DNA of 11,963 nucleotides. It comes from a virus. Location: the UHGV virus genome UHGV-0046228. One strand, given 5' to 3'. Of this stretch, positions 1,876 to 11,488 are shown piece by piece; position 1 is the stretch's first letter, and each line of letters opens with the position of its first letter. A program made the position numbers and the translations under genes. The notes beneath the pieces are model-generated. The model was not told the origin of the DNA. It worked only from the letters and a program-made list of their open reading frames with translations, and searched no databases.

Positions 1876-1991
1876 TATGCGGCTTCCTTCTGTGGCTGGT
1901 GGGTTTTGGTCTGGCTGTGCTTTACTATTGGCGGCATGCTGGCGCGCTTAACGCTTTCGGCCTGGTATCGGGTTATCTCGTCTCTGGTCAT
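1875..1991 (-). CDS. Small hypothetical protein (38 aa), translationally coupled between lar and Q
   Basis: Manual translation MTRDEITRYQAESVKRASMPPIVKHSQTKTHQPQKEAA; ATG at 1991..1989 preceded by GGAGG with a 6-nt spacer; ATGA overlap with the Lar stop and TAATG overlap with the Q start. Not in the ORF track (below size cutoff). Confidence 0.4.
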   Translation of the reverse strand: MTRDEITRYQAESVKRASMPPIVKHSQTKTHQPQKEAA

Positions 1992-2194
1992 GATGGCCTC
2001 CGATTCCAGGCGCGAATTGCATCGCGCTTTGTTGGATAGGTGTCAGTTATCGGCTTAATCAAGCATTGCTTTGTTGAACAACCGGCGTAGACACCATCAC
2101 CATCAGAAAAAAGTTCTGCGCCGCCGCCACAGAACGGACACTCAAGCAGAAAAGCCCAATGAGGTAGCTTGAGATCGAATATCATTGGTTTCAT
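1988..2194 (-). CDS. Lar-family restriction alleviation protein (anti-restriction)
   Basis: 68-aa ORF with CPFCGG...AGCSTKQC zinc-ribbon-like cysteine pairs and C-terminal AIRAWNRR, matching my recollection of Lar/RalR-family proteins of Rac-type prophages; ATGA overlap with the ninG stop. Confidence 0.55.
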   Translation of the reverse strand: MKPMIFDLKLPHWAFLLECPFCGGGAELFSDGDGVYAGCSTKQCLIKPITDTYPTKRDAIRAWNRRPS

Positions 2195-2832
2195 GCTGCC
2201 TCCCGCTGTTTCAGTGCTTTGAGCTTGTCGCGGTACTCATCCCGGATCCGGATGAAGTCTTCACGGCGGTAGTTGGTCATTTCGTGGGGGCCGTTGAGCC
2301 AGTCGACGTATCCCTGACCGTAACGAGCGACCAACCCAGCTTCGTATTGCTGCGCCACGGTCGCCTCTTTGGCGGTGTACTTGCCAGCTCCGGCATTACA
2401 GGATTTGCACTGCTTATGGGCGTTGCGTTCTTCAAAGCGCAGTTCAGGGTAAGCACCTACTGTCTTGAAATGGCCGCAATCCCACTGGCCACCATGCAGA
2501 TCAGGCGGATTGGTCTCGCCGCAGCTGATGCATGGCAAATCGGCGTCGCGCGCACGGATAAAGGCGTTGAAAGCTTTCTGAGCCTGAGCCTTGTAGTGTC
2601 CGTCTGGCCTGAGCTCGTCCAGCCGCTCCGTGCGGCGTTTGCGCCCGTCCTTCTCAGCCTCGTTTTGCTCCTTGATGCGCTTAGCCGCGTCTTTCACCTT
2701 CTCCTTCTTGCGTTCTTCCATTGCGAGGATTGCGCCGTGTTCCGGGCAGCACCAGCGGATCCGGATGTCGTGGAATTTCGGCACGAAGTATTCACCGCAT
2801 ACTTTGCACTTACGGCGGGATGGTTTACGCAT
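2191..2832 (-). CDS. ninG: NinG (Rap) recombination-associated protein
   Basis: Translation from the internal Met ([16 protein letters not shown]...) parallels lambda NinG as I recall it ([17 protein letters not shown], ERNxHKQC motifs). The track start at 2910 would overlap the upstream phosphatase by 85 nt, so ATG 2832..2830 is preferred. Confidence 0.85.
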
Positions 2833-3493
2833 GGGCACCACCTTGAACCTGTACCAGCGTGAGGCTTCCGCAGAACACGGCCCCCGTATCCATGTACATC
2901 TGGTTGGCATACTTCAGGGGCTGGCGCGCAGGGGTGTGGCCGAAGATAAACAGATCAGCACCAGCTATCGGCGAGACAATGCCGTCCTGAGCGTCGCTAA
3001 CCCGTTCACGATTCCAGATGACCATGTCTTTCGGGACCGGCTTGTCGAACGCATATTCGTTATGCGGGTAGTCAGCGTGGCAGATAACGATTTTACGTTC
3101 AGCGGTAACCAGCTCGATGACGAATGGCAGGCTGGCCGATTTATGAACCAGAGCCTTAGCCAGCACCTCTTTGTCATAGTCGAGATTGAAGAACCAACCG
3201 CCACCGTTTACCAGCCAGTGATTGACGTTCCCATACTCCGATAGCCCATCAATCATCATCTGCTCATGGTTTCCGCGCACCGCCCGGAACCACGGCATAG
3301 TAATAAGCTCCAGGCACTCGACGTTTTCCGCGCCGCGGTCAACAAGGTCACCAACCGATATCAGCAAATCATGCGCCGGGTCGAACGAAACTTTTTCGAG
3401 CTCATTCATCAGCAGCGTGTAGCACCCATGCAGATCGCCGACGACGAAGATATTGCGCCAGTCAGCGCCATTAATGCGTTGATACATGCTCAT
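2825..3493 (-). CDS. Serine/threonine protein phosphatase (lambda PPase / NinI-like metallophosphatase)
   Basis: Metallophosphatase motifs GDLHG, GDLVDRG, GNHE and strong co-linearity with lambda PPase ([35 protein letters not shown]). Start taken at ATG 3493..3491 (MSMYQRING...) with AGGAG 9 nt upstream; ATGA overlap with the ninE stop. Confidence 0.9.
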
Positions 3494-3660
3494 GCGGATT
3501 TTCTCCTCGCTGCGAGACGCAGCCATTTCTGATCCACCAGGCGGGCGGTGTAATCTTTCAGGGTCGGAATGTCGGACGGCTTAATCGCTGGCTTACGCTT
3601 GCGGCGCACCGGAACGCGGAAGATTTCGTTTGTGATGACGCGAGCGAGAGGGCTAGCCAT
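3490..3660 (-). CDS. ninE: NinE-like small basic protein (56 aa)
   Basis: Manual translation [56 protein letters not shown]; resembles my recollection of NinE of lambda/DLP12 (RKRKP...WLR...ARR); TAATG overlap with the ninB stop. Not in the ORF track. Confidence 0.6.
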
Positions 3661-4097
3661 TACGCAACCCTCCCGAAGTAATCACCTGAGTAGCGAACTT
3701 CACGGAGTTGCACGCCGTTTTGCACAGCAAATGCCTGGCTGTATTCGATGAGACTGGTCATGCGACGGATGCCCATCTTCGCAGTGCTTTCCCGGATGGC
3801 GCAGAACTCCCCTTCCAGACCCGGCACCACTTCACCAGGCTTACCGGTGGCAATGGCATGGCCTGAGACATACAGGACTTTCCATGAAGCGAGGTCGCGC
3901 GACTTGCCAGCCCATTGCAATTGCTTCGCTGTATCGCCACAGAGAGCGTGGAAGAGGTCGTTTTGGGCGAGAGTGCGGTCAGCCTCAGAAAACTTCACCA
4001 CGAGCGGCAGAGCGTCGTTAACGGGCAGCTTCCTGATGTAGTCGATGAGGTTATCGCGAACGCGTTCGTCGCGGAGGTAGAAAACAGGCTGTTTCAT
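3660..4097 (-). CDS. ninB: NinB (Orf) recombination mediator
   Basis: Translation from internal Met (MKQPVFYLRDE...) is 145 aa and co-linear with lambda NinB as recalled (QN..L...GD......W.G, SWK core); GGAGGTGG SD 6 nt upstream of ATG 4097..4095. Confidence 0.85.
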   Translation of the reverse strand: MKQPVFYLRDERVRDNLIDYIRKLPVNDALPLVVKFSEADRTLAQNDLFHALCGDTAKQLQWAGKSRDLASWKVLYVSGHAIATGKPGEVVPGLEGEFCAIRESTAKMGIRRMTSLIEYSQAFAVQNGVQLREVRYSGDYFGRVA

Positions 4098-4129
4098 ACG
4101 CCACCTCCGAGAGGTAACGCAGAATACAG

Positions 4130-4243
4130 AAAATCGCAGGTGCATTTCTGCATCTGTGACAAGGTGAGAAGTTCATATTGTGGTCGCATTTAAGTCCCCT
4201 TAAATGCGAAGAAGTCTGCCAGGGTTGTTCAGGCCGCTGGCAG
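4130..4243 (-). other. Structured RNA element: three consecutive hairpins ending in a U-rich tract (tR2-like terminator, leader or small RNA)
   Basis: Minus strand: TCTGCCAG-14 nt loop-CTGGCAGA; CGCATTTAAG-GGGA-CTTAAATGCG (10-bp perfect stem); CAGATGCA-GAAA-TGCACCTG (GNRA-type loop) followed by CGATTTTCTGTATTCTG. Confidence 0.35.
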
Positions 4244-4247
4244 ATTT

Positions 4248-4276
4248 ATTATGGCTCGTTGATAGTGTTTTATCAA
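4248..4276 (-). promoter_or_regulatory. Candidate sigma70 promoter upstream of the hairpin element and ninB
   Basis: Minus strand TTGATA (4276..4271), 17-nt spacer AAACACTATCAACGAGC, CATAAT (4253..4248). Confidence 0.45.
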
Positions 4277-4317
4277 ACGTTGCTTGACGTTTAGTTATGC
4301 GTCGAATGGGTTCTGCA

Positions 4318-5070
4318 TCACTTCACCTTCCACTGCGGTGCTGCTGCAATCATCGCGCGGTATGCAGCCTGCATGTCGTTGTCATCATCGTCTGTGTACG
4401 GAGCCGAATCCCATGCTGCACGCATATCCGGAGTAAGCTCAACCGGCACCATCACCCAACCATCAGGAATCACCGGAGAGTTGCCACCCTGAACAGTAGG
4501 CATATCCGGACCTTTGCGAATCGCCCTGGCAAGATCGATTTGGTCGTCGTACAACCAGTCACCTGTTTGCGGATGATTGGCTTCTGCCAATTGTGCAGCC
4601 CACTCCAGGCCGTCTTTGTGTCCTTGCAGATAGTCCAGCGGTAACTCATCACTATTACTTACAGGTTCGGCCTGAAGCATGGCGGCGCGATAGGCGTTCC
4701 AGCCGACAGCTTTTCCGTGTTCAAACGCGCTGTCAAAGTCATCATCAATTTCCATCGCAGCGGGCACAGATACCGGCGCTGGCGGGGCGGTGTAGAGCGG
4801 CATTACCTCAATATTGAAGATATCCCCCTCGCTTGGACACGCCTCTGCGCTACCGTAAACCCAAGGGTGAACGACTCCGTTACGCTTGTTGATTAATCTG
4901 TGCGCCCACGCCACAGGCTCCGCTTCGAGCGATGCCAGCGCGATACGCGCATTATTAATCAGGAGGCTATCAGCAGGAGATAAAACAACATGAGCGTTAC
5001 CCTCCGCATCAATTTCAGAATTCGTAATTTTTCTGAACAGCTTTGCCAGTTCTCTGGTAATAGTGCTCAT
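4318..5070 (-). CDS. Hypothetical phage protein (250 aa), acidic
   Basis: Long ORF with ATG at 5070..5068, GGAG 8 nt upstream, ATGA overlap with the upstream ORF stop; acidic runs (EIDDDFD, YTDDDDNDM); no family recognised. Confidence 0.7.
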   Translation of the reverse strand: MSTITRELAKLFRKITNSEIDAEGNAHVVLSPADSLLINNARIALASLEAEPVAWAHRLINKRNGVVHPWVYGSAEACPSEGDIFNIEVMPLYTAPPAPVSVPAAMEIDDDFDSAFEHGKAVGWNAYRAAMLQAEPVSNSDELPLDYLQGHKDGLEWAAQLAEANHPQTGDWLYDDQIDLARAIRKGPDMPTVQGGNSPVIPDGWVMVPVELTPDMRAAWDSAPYTDDDDNDMQAAYRAMIAAAPQWKVK

Positions 5071-5345
5071 GGGCGAATCTCCGTCCTGCCACCAAGTAAG
5101 CGGATTGCCACTCGTTCCCGGAAGGTAAGCGGTCGATGGTGTCCGCGGGCATTAACAATTTCAGGCTTTCCATTAGGCGGATAATTGACCCTGACCGATT
5201 GACCATCTAGCGCGTGAGAAGCCTCGAGTAGTGCTGACTTTAAGTGCGCAGGGCACTCTTTCTGCACCCGCTCGCCGTCTGAAATGACACCTGCAATCCC
5301 CTGAAGCATGCTGGCTAAATTGCTGAGATAATTTTTCACATTCAC
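5067..5345 (-). CDS. Hypothetical protein (about 90 aa); start uncertain
   Basis: ORF-track start at 5345 is a GTG only 1 nt after AAGGAG; GTG at 5339..5337 has better spacing (7 nt). Stop overlaps the start of the 250-aa ORF (ATGA). Confidence 0.5.
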   Translation of the reverse strand: MNVKNYLSNLASMLQGIAGVISDGERVQKECPAHLKSALLEASHALDGQSVRVNYPPNGKPEIVNARGHHRPLTFRERVAIRLLGGRTEIRP

Positions 5346-5692
5346 TCTCCTTTACCGGTGCCATAGGCAGATAAGCACTCTTCAAATCCAGCCTGATTAT
5401 CCGTTTGACCTAAACTGAAGCCATGCTGAAGACCATGACGAAATGCGCTATCTTGCAATTTATCTGCGCTATCGAGCTTCGCTTCCAGTTCAGCAATCCG
5501 CTCCTCATACCGAGCGCCAACGGAAACGGCTTTATGGAAGGCTTCGCACCATTTGGACGATTGCGCCTGCATCTTCTCCAGCTCATCCAGCAGCTCCAGC
5601 ACGTCGCGAGTGGGAACCATGAAGTTCGGAATGAAGTTATCTTTCGCTTTCTCTGCTGTTAGGCGCAGCGCCTGTTTGTCGATGTTGCTCAT
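5342..5692 (-). CDS. Hypothetical protein (116 aa) with central coiled-coil-like segment
   Basis: ATG 5692..5690 overlapping the stop of the upstream ORF (ATGA); charged heptad-like region ERIAELEAKLDSADKLQD; no family recognised. Confidence 0.6.
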   Translation of the reverse strand: MSNIDKQALRLTAEKAKDNFIPNFMVPTRDVLELLDELEKMQAQSSKWCEAFHKAVSVGARYEERIAELEAKLDSADKLQDSAFRHGLQHGFSLGQTDNQAGFEECLSAYGTGKGE

Positions 5693-5949
5693 TGGGCGGC
5701 TCCTTCTGTGCGATACATCATGATTGTCAGATCGCCTTTAGTCGCCAGGCGCACCGTTGTTCCTGGTTCGATGCTGGACAGGTCAAACGCATCGTAAAAT
5801 TCGTTTACTGCCTTCTGTCTACGAGATAGCTTTCTACGCTTATCCCACTGCTTTAGCGCAATGGAGATAAACCACTGGCCCGTTTTGAACATGATGAATA
5901 ACCACCCCATCAGAGCGAGACCAGTGTTTAGAATGTCCAGAATGCTCAT
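5689..5949 (-). CDS. Hypothetical small membrane protein (86 aa)
   Basis: ATG 5949..5947 with AAGGAG 7 nt upstream; N-terminal hydrophobic span LALMGWLFIMF followed by a basic stretch. Confidence 0.6.
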   Translation of the reverse strand: MSILDILNTGLALMGWLFIMFKTGQWFISIALKQWDKRRKLSRRQKAVNEFYDAFDLSSIEPGTTVRLATKGDLTIMMYRTEGAAQ

Positions 5950-6041
5950 GACTGCACTCCTTTGCGAAGCTGTGCGGCGATGTCTTCGAGTACTCCATCA
6001 GCGAAGGAGCGATCAAAATCCCCCTCTGGCGCATCAGCCAT
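5946..6041 (-). CDS. Small acidic hypothetical protein (31 aa), translationally coupled
   Basis: Manual translation MADAPEGDFDRSFADGVLEDIAAQLRKGVQS; stop TGA overlaps the ATG of the 86-aa ORF (TCATGA); no obvious SD, so it rests on coupling only. Confidence 0.3.
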   Translation of the reverse strand: MADAPEGDFDRSFADGVLEDIAAQLRKGVQS

Positions 6042-6044
6042 AAA

Positions 6045-6569
6045 CTATGTAGATGTGAGAATCATCCGTGCGATGTCTGCCGAGATCTTCGCAGTATCAT
6101 CAATAAAACCAGCTTCCCAGGCAGCCAGCATTCTGTTAGACACAAAGTAAGCGCCCTCCTTGCGTGCTTCAGTCTTCACTTCAGCCAAGAAAGCGTCGGT
6201 GGCTGTGGTTCGCGGCATCCTTCCATCTATTGCGCAGATATACGCATCAGATAGTTCACCCTGCTCGCCGTCAAACACGTAGCAACTCTGTACGATAAAT
6301 TTATTCAGCCCCGCATTCTCCGCCGCCAGCTCCCTGCACTTGCTCTCGGCGTTAGCGAGCTGTACTGCCATGTCTGTGACTTCGGCTTCAAGTTTTTCAG
6401 CATATTCAATCAGGAGATCGATTCTTTCCGGCGTTACGGTTTTAACGTATTTGCAAATCGATGACGCATAATTATCATCCTGGAGTGTGCCAGCCAGGCC
6501 ATTACAAAATTTGCGGTTCCCTTTTGTCGCCTTGATATCGGCGATGATTTTTTTAACATCTGGTTTCAT
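6045..6569 (-). CDS. Hypothetical phage protein (174 aa) with coiled-coil-like centre
   Basis: Preferred start ATG 6569..6567 (MKPDVKKIIADIK...) making an ATGA overlap with the ren stop; the track's longer N-terminus would overlap ren. Confidence 0.6.
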   Translation of the reverse strand: MKPDVKKIIADIKATKGNRKFCNGLAGTLQDDNYASSICKYVKTVTPERIDLLIEYAEKLEAEVTDMAVQLANAESKCRELAAENAGLNKFIVQSCYVFDGEQGELSDAYICAIDGRMPRTTATDAFLAEVKTEARKEGAYFVSNRMLAAWEAGFIDDTAKISADIARMILTST

Positions 6570-6865
6570 GCTGACACCCTCCCGTAAAACGCCAGTACAC
6601 GCTGCATCGCCGGACTGTTTCGGCACTCCTGAAATATTCCGTTGGTGCAGCTACGCGCGGTACCAGCCTGCTCTTCCGGCGTAGCCAGGCGATAAGTCAC
6701 CGTTCGCCAGACCTTGCTCACCCGGATAATTTTTCGAGACTTTTCCAGATCGATAGCGTTCTTCGTGATGCAGTTGATGGTCATGCCGCACTCTGTGGCC
6801 ACATCCTTCGCGGTGAAGGTCCGGTGCGTTTCGAGATAACGCAGAATTGCCTGCTTGCCTTTCAT
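6566..6865 (-). CDS. ren: Ren-like protein (lambda Ren, resistance to Rex exclusion)
   Basis: 99-aa translation MKGKQAILRYLETHRTFTAKDVA...KVWRTVTYRLATPEE...FQECRNSPAMQRVLAFYG is co-linear with lambda Ren as recalled; ATGA overlap with the P stop; sits directly after P as in lambda. Confidence 0.8.
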   Translation of the reverse strand: MKGKQAILRYLETHRTFTAKDVATECGMTINCITKNAIDLEKSRKIIRVSKVWRTVTYRLATPEEQAGTARSCTNGIFQECRNSPAMQRVLAFYGRVSA

Positions 6866-7656
6866 TGAATAAGCCCTCTCTCTTTCCCGCGCTGATACTC
6901 TTCCCAAAGCCATTGGGCCGGGGTGAGAGCGCCGAGAGTCGCCGCATTTGGCATGCACCCGAAGCTTTTTCCTTCCGGGTGATAACCGGCCTGACGGCTC
7001 ACGTGATTTGTCGGGATCACTTCATCAGAATTCTCGAGCGCCAGGACGGGGGATGGTATTTTTTCCCCACCAGCAACTTTCAGCGCCCATTCCTCAAGTT
7101 TTTTTGACGCGTATTTTTCAGTTTCAGCCTCGCTCAGCTGGCGCTGGTACATCGCTCTGCGCGTATCGGTCACAATCCAGTACATGACGTCATGAGACCA
7201 CGGGAAAGCTTCTGCTCCGCCGGTATGCAGCCCTTTTTCGCGGCTATACCGATGGAACTCATTCATCACATCAGCCAGGCCAATGCCAAGTACCGTGCCG
7301 CTATCCTTGCACCATTTGATGAATTGCCCCGGAGAAGGCCAGAAGGGTGATTCACTGGCGCGGGCATGCCGTACACCTGCGGAAAGTTGTTCGCGGGTGC
7401 GGATCCCATTCTCTGAAAACGCTGCGATCCACTGACGCTTTGCCGTTTTCTCGTCTGCGTCAGTTTTCAGGTTTGTCTGCGTAGACGCAGGGAAAATCTG
7501 CTTCAGCTGCCGAAAGAGAGAATCAACGAGGCTTTCCGCTTCGGGATTTATTACCTTCTGCTGGTCGGCGTTTCCGTTAGCCATTCTGGATAGCAGTGCC
7601 CCGTCACGCCCGTTAACTGCCTGCACAAGTTGGTTATTCACAGGAAGTCCTCCCAT
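6862..7656 (-). CDS. P: Replication protein P (DnaB helicase loader)
   Basis: 264 aa, co-linear with lambda P as recalled (FPAS, RRQWIAAFSENGIRTREQ, PFWPSPGQFIKWC, YWIVT); start overlaps the 3' end of the O-like gene. Confidence 0.9.
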   Translation of the reverse strand: MGGLPVNNQLVQAVNGRDGALLSRMANGNADQQKVINPEAESLVDSLFRQLKQIFPASTQTNLKTDADEKTAKRQWIAAFSENGIRTREQLSAGVRHARASESPFWPSPGQFIKWCKDSGTVLGIGLADVMNEFHRYSREKGLHTGGAEAFPWSHDVMYWIVTDTRRAMYQRQLSEAETEKYASKKLEEWALKVAGGEKIPSPVLALENSDEVIPTNHVSRQAGYHPEGKSFGCMPNAATLGALTPAQWLWEEYQRGKERGLIQ

Positions 7657-8372
7657 CCCTCGCGGCTGTTCCAGTGAGGCGTTTCCTGCTCAGCACGTCC
7701 ACGTTTAGCCAGCGGGTTAACCCTGGCATTCCGGATCCAGACTCTGAAAGCCGAATTCCAGTCGATTAGCTGCGTGCCACGGGAAAGGTGATAGTCCCGG
7801 AAGTTCAGCAGCTCAGTTTCAATGCTCACCCCCTTCTCGGCAGCCATAGCAATGTGATCTGCCGACGGCTTAAACAGGGGCGGGAATGGAATCTCCCCGT
7901 TTGGTGAAATCCCGATCCGCCGCTTAGCGGCTTCGCTCATAAAACCATCGCGCCCAGAGAGAGAGTTAGGTTCAGTGACTGGTTCAAAAGAGTGACTGGT
8001 TCTGGTGCCATCTGGTGGCACAGGGGGTGTGCAATCAGATGGCATAGGGTGTGCTTCTTCGTGGCATACCCCTGTGCAATTTAATGGCATAGGGGTGGCA
8101 TCTAATTTCAGGTAATACACATTTGACGTGTTACCTTTTCCGTTGTTGACGCCAACACGGTTCTCACGCCTGATAAGCCCCATTTCTTCAAGCGCATCAA
8201 TATGGTTACGAACAGCCGTTCTGCTGCATTCGCATTGGTCGGCGATATGTTGATACGAAGGCCAGCATTCGCCTTTATCGTTGGCGTTATCGGCCAACTT
8301 AATCAGGACGAGCTTACGCAGTGAGTTTCCCACTTTGACCCCCATTGCTTTCGCCATAAGTGACATGCTCAC
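7638..8372 (-). CDS. Replication initiator, O-like (N-terminal winged-HTH, ori iterons in the coding sequence, C-terminal P-interaction-like domain)
   Basis: 244-aa ORF; N-terminal HTH-like segment (SRTAVRNHIDALEEMGLIRRE); iteron repeats fall in a Pro/Thr-rich linker; followed by P. GTG at 8372 with GGAGGT 5 nt upstream, alternative ATG at 8366. Confidence 0.8.
   Translation of the reverse strand: MSMSLMAKAMGVKVGNSLRKLVLIKLADNANDKGECWPSYQHIADQCECSRTAVRNHIDALEEMGLIRRENRVGVNNGKGNTSNVYYLKLDATPMPLNCTGVCHEEAHPMPSDCTPPVPPDGTRTSHSFEPVTEPNSLSGRDGFMSEAAKRRIGISPNGEIPFPPLFKPSADHIAMAAEKGVSIETELLNFRDYHLSRGTQLIDWNSAFRVWIRNARVNPLAKRGRAEQETPHWNSREGWEDFL
8003..8100. repeat. Origin-of-replication iterons inside the O-like gene
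   Basis: Four related units spaced about 22 bp: TGGCACAGGGGGTGTGC, TGGCATAGGGTGTGC, TGGCATACCCCTGTGC, TGGCATAGGGGTGGCA, preceded by inverted repeat GTGCCA...TGGCAC and flanked by an AT-rich tract (8101-8130). Confidence 0.6.
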
Positions 8373-10391: not shown

Positions 10392-10583
10392 GCGCTATGA
10401 GATCAGGCATCCTCGTTACTTTGTCATGTGTGACAGCCTGGTATGCACTCTGCGAGCTTTGATGTGGTTTACCACTTTAATAGTCACCGTATCACTAAAC
10501 TGATTAGCTTTACTCATACTCTTGTGGATTCGCTATTTCTGATGTCAATGCAAAAAAATACTAAGGAAACAAAAAGGATACTT

Positions 10584-10850
10584 ATGTCAGATAACACTAT
10601 TAAAATCATACCTCAGCACATGACCGCCACATCAGTTCTTATTACGCCTGATCGTGCTGAAACAATCATTACTTTTCACCGCCATGAATTTGAGCATCAC
10701 ATGCAGTCTGATGAGCAAGGAAAGAATAGCTTCCAAGTAAAAGTTGAGTTGACCCCTAACATGTCAGTCTCAATGAGCCCGGATCAAGCTGTTGCATTAG
10801 TAAAATCATTACAGGTAGCTCTCAGGGATAATGGGCTATGGAAAGACTGA
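10584..10850 (+). CDS. Hypothetical protein (88 aa), first gene of the AT-rich module
   Basis: Preferred start ATG 10584 (MSDNTIKIIPQHM...) with AAGGA 5 nt upstream; the longer track ORF (from 10443) lacks an SD. His-rich segment FHRHEFEHHMQ; stop overlaps the next gene's start by 13 nt. Confidence 0.5.
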   Translation: MSDNTIKIIPQHMTATSVLITPDRAETIITFHRHEFEHHMQSDEQGKNSFQVKVELTPNMSVSMSPDQAVALVKSLQVALRDNGLWKD

Positions 10851-11488
10851 AGCCAGTTTCTTCAGTTCAACCTACCTCAGGAACAACATCATCAGTTCTT
10901 CCAAGTATTATAGTTAGTGCAACCCTAGCAGCGACAACCGTTTCTCCTTATGGGGATCCATCTCAGTACCAAAGTATTGGTATTGATGCTAAGGTATCAA
11001 ATAGAGTTTCATACGCCATGGACGAAACGGGTTTGCGCCCAAGTAAGGAAGATGTAGCGATGAAGAGTGATACCCTGGAGGTAAGCGTGAGCGGAATGTC
11101 CAGAGAAGAACTTGACGCAAAGCTTTCACAAAACAAATCAGAGGTAGAGTCTATTGCTGCGGAAATGCGTCGCGAATCAGCTGACTTTAAAACCTATTAT
11201 ACTCAGCAATTTTCTTCTATTGAGAGAGGTATTGCTGAAATTAAAGGTGAAATCGGCGGTTTGAAAACGGGACTTACAACGACTCAGTGGGCGATGGCCG
11301 TTGGCTTGACTTTAGTTACTGTGATTCTGTCTGGCGTGATGTTAGCCTCAAGTTGGATTATCTCCGGCAATGACAAGTCACCATCAGTAACCAGCCCGGC
11401 TCCAATTATAATACAGGTACCGACACAGCAACCATTAACGAGCGCTCCAACTAACCAATCGTCATCACAACAAGCTCCTAAGCAATAA
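10838..11488 (+). CDS. Coiled-coil protein with C-terminal transmembrane anchor and Ser/Thr/Pro/Gln-rich tail (216 aa)
   Basis: Charged heptad-like region (SREELDAKLSQNKSEVESIAAEMRRESADFKTYY...ERGIAEIKGEIGGLKTGL), a single ~23-residue hydrophobic span (WAMAVGLTLVTVILSGVMLASSWII) and a low-complexity tail; AT-rich codon usage unlike the flanking phage genes; intrinsic terminator directly after the stop. Confidence 0.6.
   Translation: MERLKPVSSVQPTSGTTSSVLPSIIVSATLAATTVSPYGDPSQYQSIGIDAKVSNRVSYAMDETGLRPSKEDVAMKSDTLEVSVSGMSREELDAKLSQNKSEVESIAAEMRRESADFKTYYTQQFSSIERGIAEIKGEIGGLKTGLTTTQWAMAVGLTLVTVILSGVMLASSWIISGNDKSPSVTSPAPIIIQVPTQQPLTSAPTNQSSSQQAPKQ

Follow-up and report, generated by a model that had tools for sequence, protein, structure and literature searches.

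Several groups of accessory genes are known from the early operons of lambdoid phages. The ea region of P22 has the gene order eaE, ORF45, eaF, eaD, eaI and eaA and lies in the early-left operon between abc2 and xis. The Ea22 protein of lambda and the Stx phages (PF13935 / IPR025153) is a pro-lysogenic product of the exo-xis region. Ea22 is a coiled-coil tetramer whose C-terminal domain varies; when ea22 is deleted, the latent period is shorter, the burst larger and lysogenisation less frequent (PMC10834534, PMC7093339). This pro-lysogenic phenotype is known experimentally for the Ea22 proteins of lambda and Phi24B only (PMC7093339), and ea22 is non-essential in lambda (PMC10695390). The Ea22 family is mosaic: its C-terminal domains, DUF551 among them, can be swapped (PMC10834534). 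In phi80, the gene for gp52 ("similar to N15 gp45") stands alone between the replication genes and the nin region, while E. coli prophages have genes for proteins named "DUF551 domain-containing" in the same slot, between P/ren and ninB/ybcN. Escherichia phage Dewey (BASEL collection) has a longer set in its leftward operon after RecT/Gam, where CDS0032 to CDS0027 run from an EaE-like gene through an EaD-like gene and a gene for a 90-aa protein to an EaA-like N-terminal domain.

The locus described here comes from a viral genome (UHGV-0046228) of which a stretch of 11,963 nucleotides, termed the window, was analysed. Five accessory genes of the P22/lambda ea type, delayed-early in class and grouped as a portable cassette, very probably occupy the minus strand at 4318-6569. 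By homology the order is EaE-like, DUF4752, short EaD/Ea22-like, 90-aa and EaA-like. The genes belong to long-catalogued ea families (P22 EaE/EaD/EaA, Ead/Ea22-like PF13935, DUF4752 PF15944 and several PHROGs) and, judged by these matches, are already known and not orphans; public databases already hold proteins that are 98-100% identical. Upstream is a Ren-like gene (6566..6865, minus strand, 99 aa) that matches phrog_142, the Ren-like exclusion protein (E=1.6e-34), in a PHROG search and whose product is 94% identical to the RefSeq "protein ren" of E. coli ABWA45. Downstream, genes for NinB, NinE, a NinI-like phosphatase and NinG occupy 2191-4097, beginning with NinB (3660..4097, minus strand, 145 aa; PF05772, E=5.5e-39).

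The ORF listing fills the interval between the Ren-like gene and NinB with six successive minus-strand ORFs, and a sequence-only reading had taken these as six consecutive genes. Their positions stand, but the gene number falls to five because the 31-aa ORF is the C-terminal part of a 207-codon eaE-like gene that also includes the 174-aa ORF. The same reading described the genes as translationally coupled, without assigned function and mostly joined by ATGA overlaps, and the sequence bears this out. There are four such overlaps (ren/ORF1, where the ren stop overlaps the cassette start, ORF2/ORF3, ORF3/ORF4 and ORF5/ORF6), and the ORF4/ORF5 junction is TGAatGTG. Coding by the five genes is not due to chance, as judged from sequence comparison, because four have pN/pS values of 0.06-0.5 against relatives and the fifth (86 aa) matches the DUF4752 family of Pfam at E=2.5e-41; all genes that could be tested appear to be under purifying selection. 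None of the five proteins matches a Nin family in Pfam or PHROGs, which agrees with the view that no lambda nin gene is present. The suggestion that the junction of replication and nin genes is a mosaic hotspot also held up, as its content varies across the window, two E. coli prophages (L001 and L002), phi80, an Enterobacter locus (L010) and a further contig (L012).

The spacer between the cassette and ninB (4098..4317, minus strand) is non-coding and is predicted to form a strongly structured RNA (-76.1 kcal/mol, z=-5.7 versus shuffles). It includes the hairpin annotated as IR4 in phi80 and is probably a tR2-type terminator region. No Rfam family was matched in the window.

The cassette resembles the P22 ea region in several respects. 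Both have an EaE-like gene, small gene(s), an EaD-like gene, a small gene and an EaA-like gene in the same order, and both are tightly packed with stops overlapping starts. They differ in location, since the window cassette lies in the rightward operon from ren to ninB while that of P22 is in the early-left operon. The window also has DUF4752 in place of ORF45/eaF and the 90-aa protein in place of eaI, its EaD-like coiled coil is much shorter (116 versus 197 aa), and its EaA-like protein has other middle and C-terminal modules. Cassettes of this kind are found at two sites, either after the recombination genes in the PL operon or between P/ren and ninB, as here, in phi80 and in E. coli prophages. 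Cassette genes were in the rightward operon in L001, L002, phi80, L010, L012 and a sister metagenome contig (L020), and in the leftward operon in Dewey, P22, L008, L013, L014 and the Comamonas locus L011. Dewey is closely related in part, with DNA 97% identical over about 4671-5704 of the window and a 90-aa protein that is 100% identical, but it carries an HNH endonuclease insert and an EaA-like gene shortened to 130 aa. The phi80 gp52 is a homologue of the 250-aa protein, and the phi80 DNA is 98.9% identical over the aligning parts of 4200-4941, about 26% of a 2.5-kb query. Searches of NCBIfam with the cassette proteins returned nothing, sequence and profile searches of the PDB with four of them gave nothing meaningful, and a literature search on eaA, eaD and P22 found nothing relevant.

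The eaE-like gene (5946..6569, minus strand, 207 codons) spans the ORFs listed as 174 aa (6045-6569, minus strand) and 31 aa (5946-6041, minus strand), which are in the same frame and separated by a TAG and one further codon. A GGAGG Shine-Dalgarno sequence lies upstream of the start at 6569; none was found ahead of the 31-aa ORF. The TAG (6045..6047, minus strand) is codon 175, where all homologues have Glu (GAG or GAA). In tblastn, P22 EaE, Dewey CDS0032, Bas81_0094 and an E. coli prophage all align right through the TAG, and the 31-aa ORF aligns with the C-terminal tails both of P22 EaE and of intact 207-aa homologues, which are 87-98% identical to the eaE-like product over the full length. 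The similarity to P22 EaE is 65% identity over residues 75-207, and the N-terminal 74 residues differ, consistent with a mosaic head. The P22 tail (...TSTEFMADAPEGDFDRSFADGV.EDIAAQLRKGVQS) is colinear and 97% identical, the sole break being the TAG at the Glu position. In every homologue the 31-aa part is fused to the upstream part to give about 165-235 aa in total (exactly 207 aa in five), and a 174-aa product is recorded for this contig alone. The pN/pS of the gene is 0.09-0.33 against its closer relatives (L001 and L003-L005) and about 0.5 against the approximately 53%-identical L013 and L014, tail included. The name "ead/Ea22-like" comes from the RefSeq name of an 87-89%-identical homologue and from shared PHROGs; the repaired 207-aa protein has no Pfam match even at E<=10, PF13935 included, and does not align with lambda Ea22.

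These alignments identify the 31-aa ORF as the cut-off end of the eaE-like gene. The TAG probably stems from an error of sequencing or assembly at low coverage, because it is one of six clustered variants at invariant residues, five of which are T calls, in a contig covered only 3.6x. The comparison is with the sister contig L020, which is 99.77% identical over 4.7 kb, has the gene order P-Ren-207-86-116-90-250-NinB and has an intact first cassette gene. Six of the 11 differences between the window and L020 lie in one 165-nt stretch of the eaE-like gene (6047, 6083, 6085, 6138, 6140 and 6211), and all six are nonsynonymous changes at residues that are invariant in five intact homologues. The other five lie where the alignment reaches a recombination boundary, at its ninE end, and the remaining 4.5 kb or so is identical. 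It is possible, if rather doubtful, that the TAG is instead a genuine amber codon in a decaying or subfunctionalised gene. The EaE-like protein would then be truncated to 174 aa, and re-initiation might supply the 31-aa tail. The TAG is, after all, present in the assembled contig, an ATG is located 4 nt past it, and ea genes tolerate inactivation, as illustrated by the frameshift in orf109/eaD of phage L (PMC8022706). The concentration of the six differences, the five T calls among them, their position at invariant residues, the identity of the surrounding DNA to that of L020 and the low coverage all argue against an amber codon, as do the otherwise intact tail beyond the TAG and the ATG itself, which is the conserved Met of a TSTEFMA motif and is not preceded by a Shine-Dalgarno sequence. 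Programmed readthrough and recoding were also weighed as accounts of the TAG but dismissed, since intact alleles have Glu and the neighbouring odd substitutions point to error. That the block consists of six separate genes, one of them coding for a true 31-aa micro-protein, is very improbable. The 31-aa ORF does have an ATG, and its stop forms an ATGA overlap with the next start, but that overlap is where the full-length gene ends, as L020 shows. Given the shared frame, the missing Shine-Dalgarno sequence and the fusion in all homologues, the separate 31-aa gene proposed by the sequence-only reading is refuted by the homologue alignments and by L020.

The second cassette gene (5689..5949, minus strand) encodes an 86-aa protein that matches PF15944 (DUF4752) with 140 bits against a cut-off of 27, over positions 1-82 of the 84 in the profile, and it also matches phrog_667. 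One N-terminal hydrophobic span (residues ~1-32) is followed by KQWDKRRKLSRRQK, in keeping with its earlier description as a predicted membrane protein; this small protein is predicted to cross the membrane once and to have a basic tail in the cytoplasm. Its gene has its own AAGGAG Shine-Dalgarno sequence along with the ATGA overlap, and the adjacency of an eaE-like gene and a DUF4752 gene is also found in Salmonella phage SPN1S. No papers on the DUF4752 family were found in the literature search.

The third gene (5342..5692, minus strand; pN/pS 0.06-0.26) encodes a short EaD/Ea22-like coiled-coil protein of 116 aa. Its match to PF13935 (Ead_Ea22) is borderline at 27.5 bits against a cut-off of 27 and spans residues 30-80, the coiled-coil part. 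Lambda Ea22 (44% over 48 aa) and P22 EaD both align with its N-terminal head, and its last 52 residues share 65% identity with P22 EaD. The protein shares with lambda Ea22 the head (MSxIxxQALR...) and the coiled-coil signature, although the two genes differ in genome position. This fits the Ead/Ea22 plan of a short N-terminal head, a predicted coiled coil and a variable C-terminal domain (PMC10834534). Neither the 116-aa nor the EaE-like protein had any PDB sequence match at E<=1, and their C-terminal domains differ from that of lambda Ea22, for which an NMR structure has been solved.

The fourth gene (5067..5339, minus strand; pN/pS 0.08-0.14) was listed as an ORF of 92 aa (5067-5345) and had been left with a choice between its first GTG and a later start. 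Comparison with relatives settled the start at GTG 5339 because relatives have an ATG at that position and one has no upstream GTG. The 90-aa protein matches phrog_14964 (E=7e-63) and has no Pfam match, even at E<=10. Its family contains 62 clusters from several enterobacterial genera, nearly all of 90 aa, and a scan for related loci with this single protein found four. AF2 modelled the protein with a mean pLDDT of 80.5, and a fold search with this model gave no convincing match.

The last gene (4318..5070, minus strand) encodes a 250-aa EaA-like mosaic protein that is strongly acidic (net charge about -20, pI 4.45) and carries the run DDDDND, as the sequence-only reading had noted. It has at least 7973 related clusters and conserved cores at residues 41-103 and 128-199, flanked by a swappable head, insert and C-terminal modules that are exchanged at "PDGW". 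Only the N-terminal ~100 residues align with P22 EaA (35% identity, E=9e-6), and one database source calls a relative "Eaa protein". Its relatives include a protein of an E. coli 1218KP prophage that is 99.2% identical. RefSeq names 99%-identical relatives "DUF551 domain-containing", and many E. coli relatives do end in a true DUF551 domain (PF04448; ...W.S..ERMPE...THWMPLPEPP); they share residues 1 to about 206 and diverge after "PDGW". The name is misleading for the present variant because it lacks the PF04448 domain, as read from its sequence, and the protein has no Pfam match at E<=10. Its C-terminal module (4321..4488, minus strand) matches the consensus PDGW-x-VP-x-E-x-T-x-x-M ... DDDD ... 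AYRAMIAAAP of about 50 aa. The module was found in 630 representative proteins (E<=1e-3), mostly at the C-terminus and sometimes in two or three copies, and no Pfam domain was found in ten long carriers. An AF2 model of the whole protein from a 36-sequence alignment was unusable (mean pLDDT 41.7) and was left out of the fold search; the module is the sole part modelled at pLDDT 57-82 and is predicted to be a helix-loop-helix. The DDDD run is, in this model, a short conserved loop in the module and not an extended DNA-like surface.

The sequence-only reading placed the block among anti-defence or host-takeover genes and suggested that an acidic protein might be a DNA mimic. Ren enables lambda to escape Rex exclusion, and the block lies in a variable slot adjoining ren, with a Lar-family restriction-alleviation gene in the same operon. 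The charge of the 250-aa protein and the swapping of its C-terminal module at a fixed junction among relatives, which fits an arms race, could likewise suggest an island in which one or more proteins, especially this one, inhibit restriction-modification or other immunity, possibly by mimicry. Such an island is nevertheless unlikely. The 250-aa, 90-aa and repaired EaE-like proteins match no known anti-restriction family in Pfam, even at E<=10, the other two match DUF4752 and Ead_Ea22 only, PADLOC-DB defence models matched none of the five at E<=0.01, and there was no relative among solved structures, so neither the anti-defence content nor the DNA mimic found support. Membership of the 250-aa protein in the ArdA, Ocr or ArdB/KlcA types received no Pfam match and no PDB relative, a paper on anti-restriction (PMC12373910) contained nothing on these genes, and Ea22, the sole family member tested, acts on the balance of lysis and lysogeny and not on immunity (PMC7093339). 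The mimic reading of DDDDND was rejected: the run is a loop of 4-5 residues and not an acidic surface of DNA length, and the poor model is unsuited to testing mimicry. A further reading, in which the EaA-like and EaE/EaD-like proteins are modular adaptors whose swappable C-terminal modules (e.g. PDGW...AYRAMIAAAP) are each aimed at a different host factor or immune system, is quite improbable as well. If it were true, the ea genes would make up a combinatorial toolkit for counter-defence or host takeover, and module exchange at fixed junctions would be an arms-race footprint. Prophage accessory slots often house defence and superinfection-exclusion systems, and the DUF4752 protein is predicted to be membrane-anchored, so a module expressed from the prophage has also been weighed. 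This is highly improbable: it hardly fits with genes that are closely coupled to ren, sit between P/ren and ninB within the early lytic operon, lack a promoter of their own and would be repressed in a lysogen, and whose products have no PADLOC match.

The cassette is best regarded as an accessory set of the ea type, and the likeliest mode of action, proposed tentatively, is tuning of early infection. The genes would be co-transcribed with O-P-ren in the rightward (pR) operon, by analogy with lambda, and their translation would be coupled from one gene to the next; a Shine-Dalgarno sequence for each real gene lies within the 3' end of the gene before it. Like lambda ea22, they may be dispensable for plaque formation. 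Both Ea22-family proteins would form coiled-coil oligomers whose variable C-terminal modules are presented to partners from the host or the phage, and the swappable modules of the EaA-like protein would act likewise. The proteins may then tune the latent period, burst size and lysogenisation frequency in early infection, with no specific defence system attacked. The link to the Ea22 phenotype comes from family membership, which on Pfam is borderline for the 116-aa protein and absent for the EaE-like one.

As such, the cassette is one more mosaic arrangement of catalogued, uncharacterised lambdoid accessory genes and matters little. It shows that, where a metagenome contig has low coverage, a short ORF behind an in-frame stop needs comparison with homologues before a micro-protein is called, and that the RefSeq label "DUF551 domain-containing" sits on proteins that do not have the domain. 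The ea families, including the widespread Pfam-less C-terminal module, have been assigned no biochemical function after decades, and any ea phenotype would close a gap of long standing in the biology of lambda and P22.

The minus strand of the window, a complete metagenome contig of 11,963 bp (ENA ERZ504794, NODE_1366, coverage 3.6x), carries a lambdoid early-right operon. A Cro-like gene comes first, followed by a gene in the CII position with a YdaT domain, an O-like gene (7638-8372), P (6862-7656), and a Ren-like gene (6566-6865); beyond the block at 4318-6569 lie NinB (3660-4097) and, in order, NinE, a NinI-type phosphatase, NinG, Lar, Q, and the holin. The block is very probably an accessory cassette of the ea type (early accessory genes of P22 and lambda, such as EaE, EaD, EaA, and Ea22). 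The sequence-only reading placed six coupled ORFs here (174, 31, 86, 116, about 90, and 250 aa), and an ORF scan finds all six at those coordinates and sizes. That observation is largely right in its ORFs and positions, but the genes number five. ATGA junctions link the Ren-like gene to the 174-aa ORF, the 31-aa to the 86-aa, the 86-aa to the 116-aa, and the 90-aa to the 250-aa ORF; the 116-aa and 90-aa ORFs meet at TGAatGTG, and the 174-aa and 31-aa ORFs at TAG-TTT-ATG in the same frame. Apart from the 31-aa one, each ORF is preceded at 7-9 nt by a good Shine-Dalgarno sequence that lies within the gene before it.

Rather than a gene of its own, the 31-aa ORF is, judged by homology, the same-frame tail of an EaE-like gene (5946-6569, minus strand) whose product matches P22 EaE at 65% identity over residues 75-207. 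In phrog_14548, positions 58-166 align with the C-terminal half of the 174-aa ORF, and the match runs on into the 31-aa ORF with positions 169-198. A tblastn query that joined the two ORFs, with X in place of the stop, gave a single alignment across the stop with P22 EaE, the epsilon15 Eae-like protein, Sf101, and the BASEL phages Dewey and Bas81. These homologues all read ...TSTEFMA[D/N]APEGDFDRSF..., with GAG or GAA at the position of the window's TAG. Five intact homologues have a length of exactly 207 aa and show 87-98% identity from end to end, and a Citrobacter homologue is named "ead/Ea22-like family protein" in RefSeq.

The closest 207-aa homologue (P0183) is encoded on a sister contig that was assembled from a related sample (ERZ504847, NODE_744; L020), where the order is the same: P, Ren, the 207-aa gene, DUF4752 (86 aa), Ead-like (116 aa), 90-aa, 250-aa, NinB, and NinE. 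The two contigs are 99.77% identical across 4,697 bp, with 11 differences in all, of which five fall at a recombination boundary in ninE and six are crowded into 6047-6211 of the window. Each of the six alters a position at which none of the five intact homologues varies (R120, S144, I162, S163, and the stop at 175), and on the coding strand five of them read as T. Because such changes cluster in this way on a 3.6x contig, they look like a bad read rather than evolution, and the in-frame stop is itself probably an error. It is possible that the TAG is a real private allele of the eaE-like gene; the 31-aa ORF would be the tail of that gene in either case. The probable error at 6047-6211 calls for caution over single-base features elsewhere in the window.

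Next in the cassette is a DUF4752 gene (5689-5949, minus strand; PF15944, 140 bits), whose product has a single N-terminal hydrophobic span and then a basic stretch; eaE-like and DUF4752 genes are neighbours again in Salmonella phage SPN1S. The short EaD/Ea22-family gene (5342-5692, minus strand) is barely over the threshold for PF13935. Its N-terminal head resembles lambda Ea22 and P22 EaD, and its C-terminal 52 aa share 65% identity with P22 EaD. The 90-aa gene (5067-5339, minus strand; phrog_14964) belongs to a small, length-conserved family found in Escherichia, Salmonella, Klebsiella, Enterobacter, Cronobacter, and Yersinia. Its start, which had been left between two sites, is assigned to the later GTG at 5339 because relatives carry ATG there. 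A confident AF2 model of the protein (pLDDT 80.5) has no convincing match among known folds. Close relatives lie in early accessory regions, most of them immediately ahead of an EaA-like, DUF551-type, or dATP/dGTP-pyrophosphohydrolase-type gene that they overlap. Distant relatives (48% identity, E=4e-11; L017 7001-7285 and L018 5735-6019) belong to a Mu-like myovirus tail module, where they sit between a post-sheath gene (presumably tail tube) and the tape-measure gene, the usual place of the tail assembly chaperone.

The acidic EaA-like protein of 250 aa (4318-5070, minus strand) belongs to a very large family (at least 7,973 clusters) whose members are called "DUF551 domain-containing" or "Eaa protein". 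Its alignment, with invariant cores at residues 41-103 and 128-199, alternating N-terminal heads, an optional insert, and an exchangeable C-terminus past a fixed "PDGW" junction, reads as textbook module shuffling. Many relatives end in a true DUF551, and the window's protein ends in a module of about 50 aa (4321-4488, the last 56 aa). This variant has no PF04448 domain, despite the RefSeq label "DUF551 domain-containing" on 99%-identical proteins (e.g., WP_488913577.1 in the E. coli 1218KP prophage, L001); the label appears to have been carried over from relatives sharing only the first ~206 residues. The module (consensus PDGW-x-VP-x-E-x-T-x-x-M ... AYRAMIAAAP, often including a DDDD loop) is carried by 630 representative proteins, 34-491 aa long, usually C-terminally and sometimes in two or three copies. 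Pfam has no model for it, and ten long carrier proteins lack any Pfam domain. The DDDDND run, once suggested as a sign of DNA mimicry, is predicted to be a loop between two helices of the module and is kept within its closest subfamily; the run is too short for such mimicry.

The 220-nt spacer before NinB (4098-4317, minus strand) is probably a tR2-type terminator region. Its fold (-76.1 kcal/mol) is much more stable than that of shuffled sequence (z=-5.7) and has several hairpins, one annotated IR4 in phi80 (~4190-4213); the spacer also contains a promoter-like site at 4276-4248 (10/12 matches), and no Rfam family matched. A seven-codon mini-ORF at 4295-4318, minus strand (ATG CAG AAC CCA TTC GAC GCA TAA), overlaps the end of the 250-aa gene, its ATG beginning within that gene's stop codon (TGATG), and may be a stump of a gene that follows in other phages.

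The cassette follows the order eaE ... eaD ... eaA of the P22 ea region and likewise that of the Dewey early-left block. Among the loci inspected, cassette genes occupy two positions. One follows the recombination genes and precedes xis/int (P22, Dewey, Enterobacter adelaidei L008, L013, L014, and, for the 90-aa gene only, a Comamonas prophage). The other is between P/ren and ninB/ybcN (the window, its sister contig, E. coli 1218KP, E. coli ABWA45, phi80 gp52, and Enterobacter L010 and L012). Both are delayed-early, and expression timing would therefore be preserved. Parts of the 2.8-kb combination match 1,488 of 5,426 complete E. coli genomes, yet none holds it exactly and no single place covers at least 80% of it, so the replication-nin slot is, as proposed, a genuine mosaic hotspot. 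Every family in the block had been catalogued before, and RefSeq already annotates near-identical proteins. Comparison with relatives gives pN/pS well under 1 (0.06-0.5) for the four genes that had comparable DNA.

The suggestion of an anti-defence or DNA-mimic block is unsupported. The cassette proteins have no PADLOC match, and the four that were compared with solved structures have no relatives there. Pfam gives no match of any kind, hence none to anti-restriction families, for the 250-aa, 90-aa, and repaired EaE-like proteins. A recognisable anti-restriction gene is present in the operon but outside the block: a Lar-family restriction-alleviation gene (1988-2194, minus strand; PF14354, phrog_599) between NinG and Q. 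Two overlapping genes (10443-10850 and 10838-11488) follow the CI repressor gene on its own (plus) strand and belong to function-unassigned PHROGs (phrog_26809 and phrog_5820), with no Pfam match; the 216-aa product has a C-terminal hydrophobic segment. In lambdoid prophages the slot after CI is often home to lysogen-expressed exclusion genes such as rexAB and sieB.

Experimental data for the wider family come only from Ea22 of lambda and Phi24B. This protein forms a coiled-coil tetramer and has a C-terminal domain that varies; when it is deleted, the latent period is shorter, the burst larger, and lysogenisation less frequent (PMC7093339, PMC10834534). Ea22 is non-essential (PMC10695390). The favoured reading, a tentative one, is that the cassette proteins may be dispensable modulators of early infection that would act by protein-protein contacts through swappable modules.
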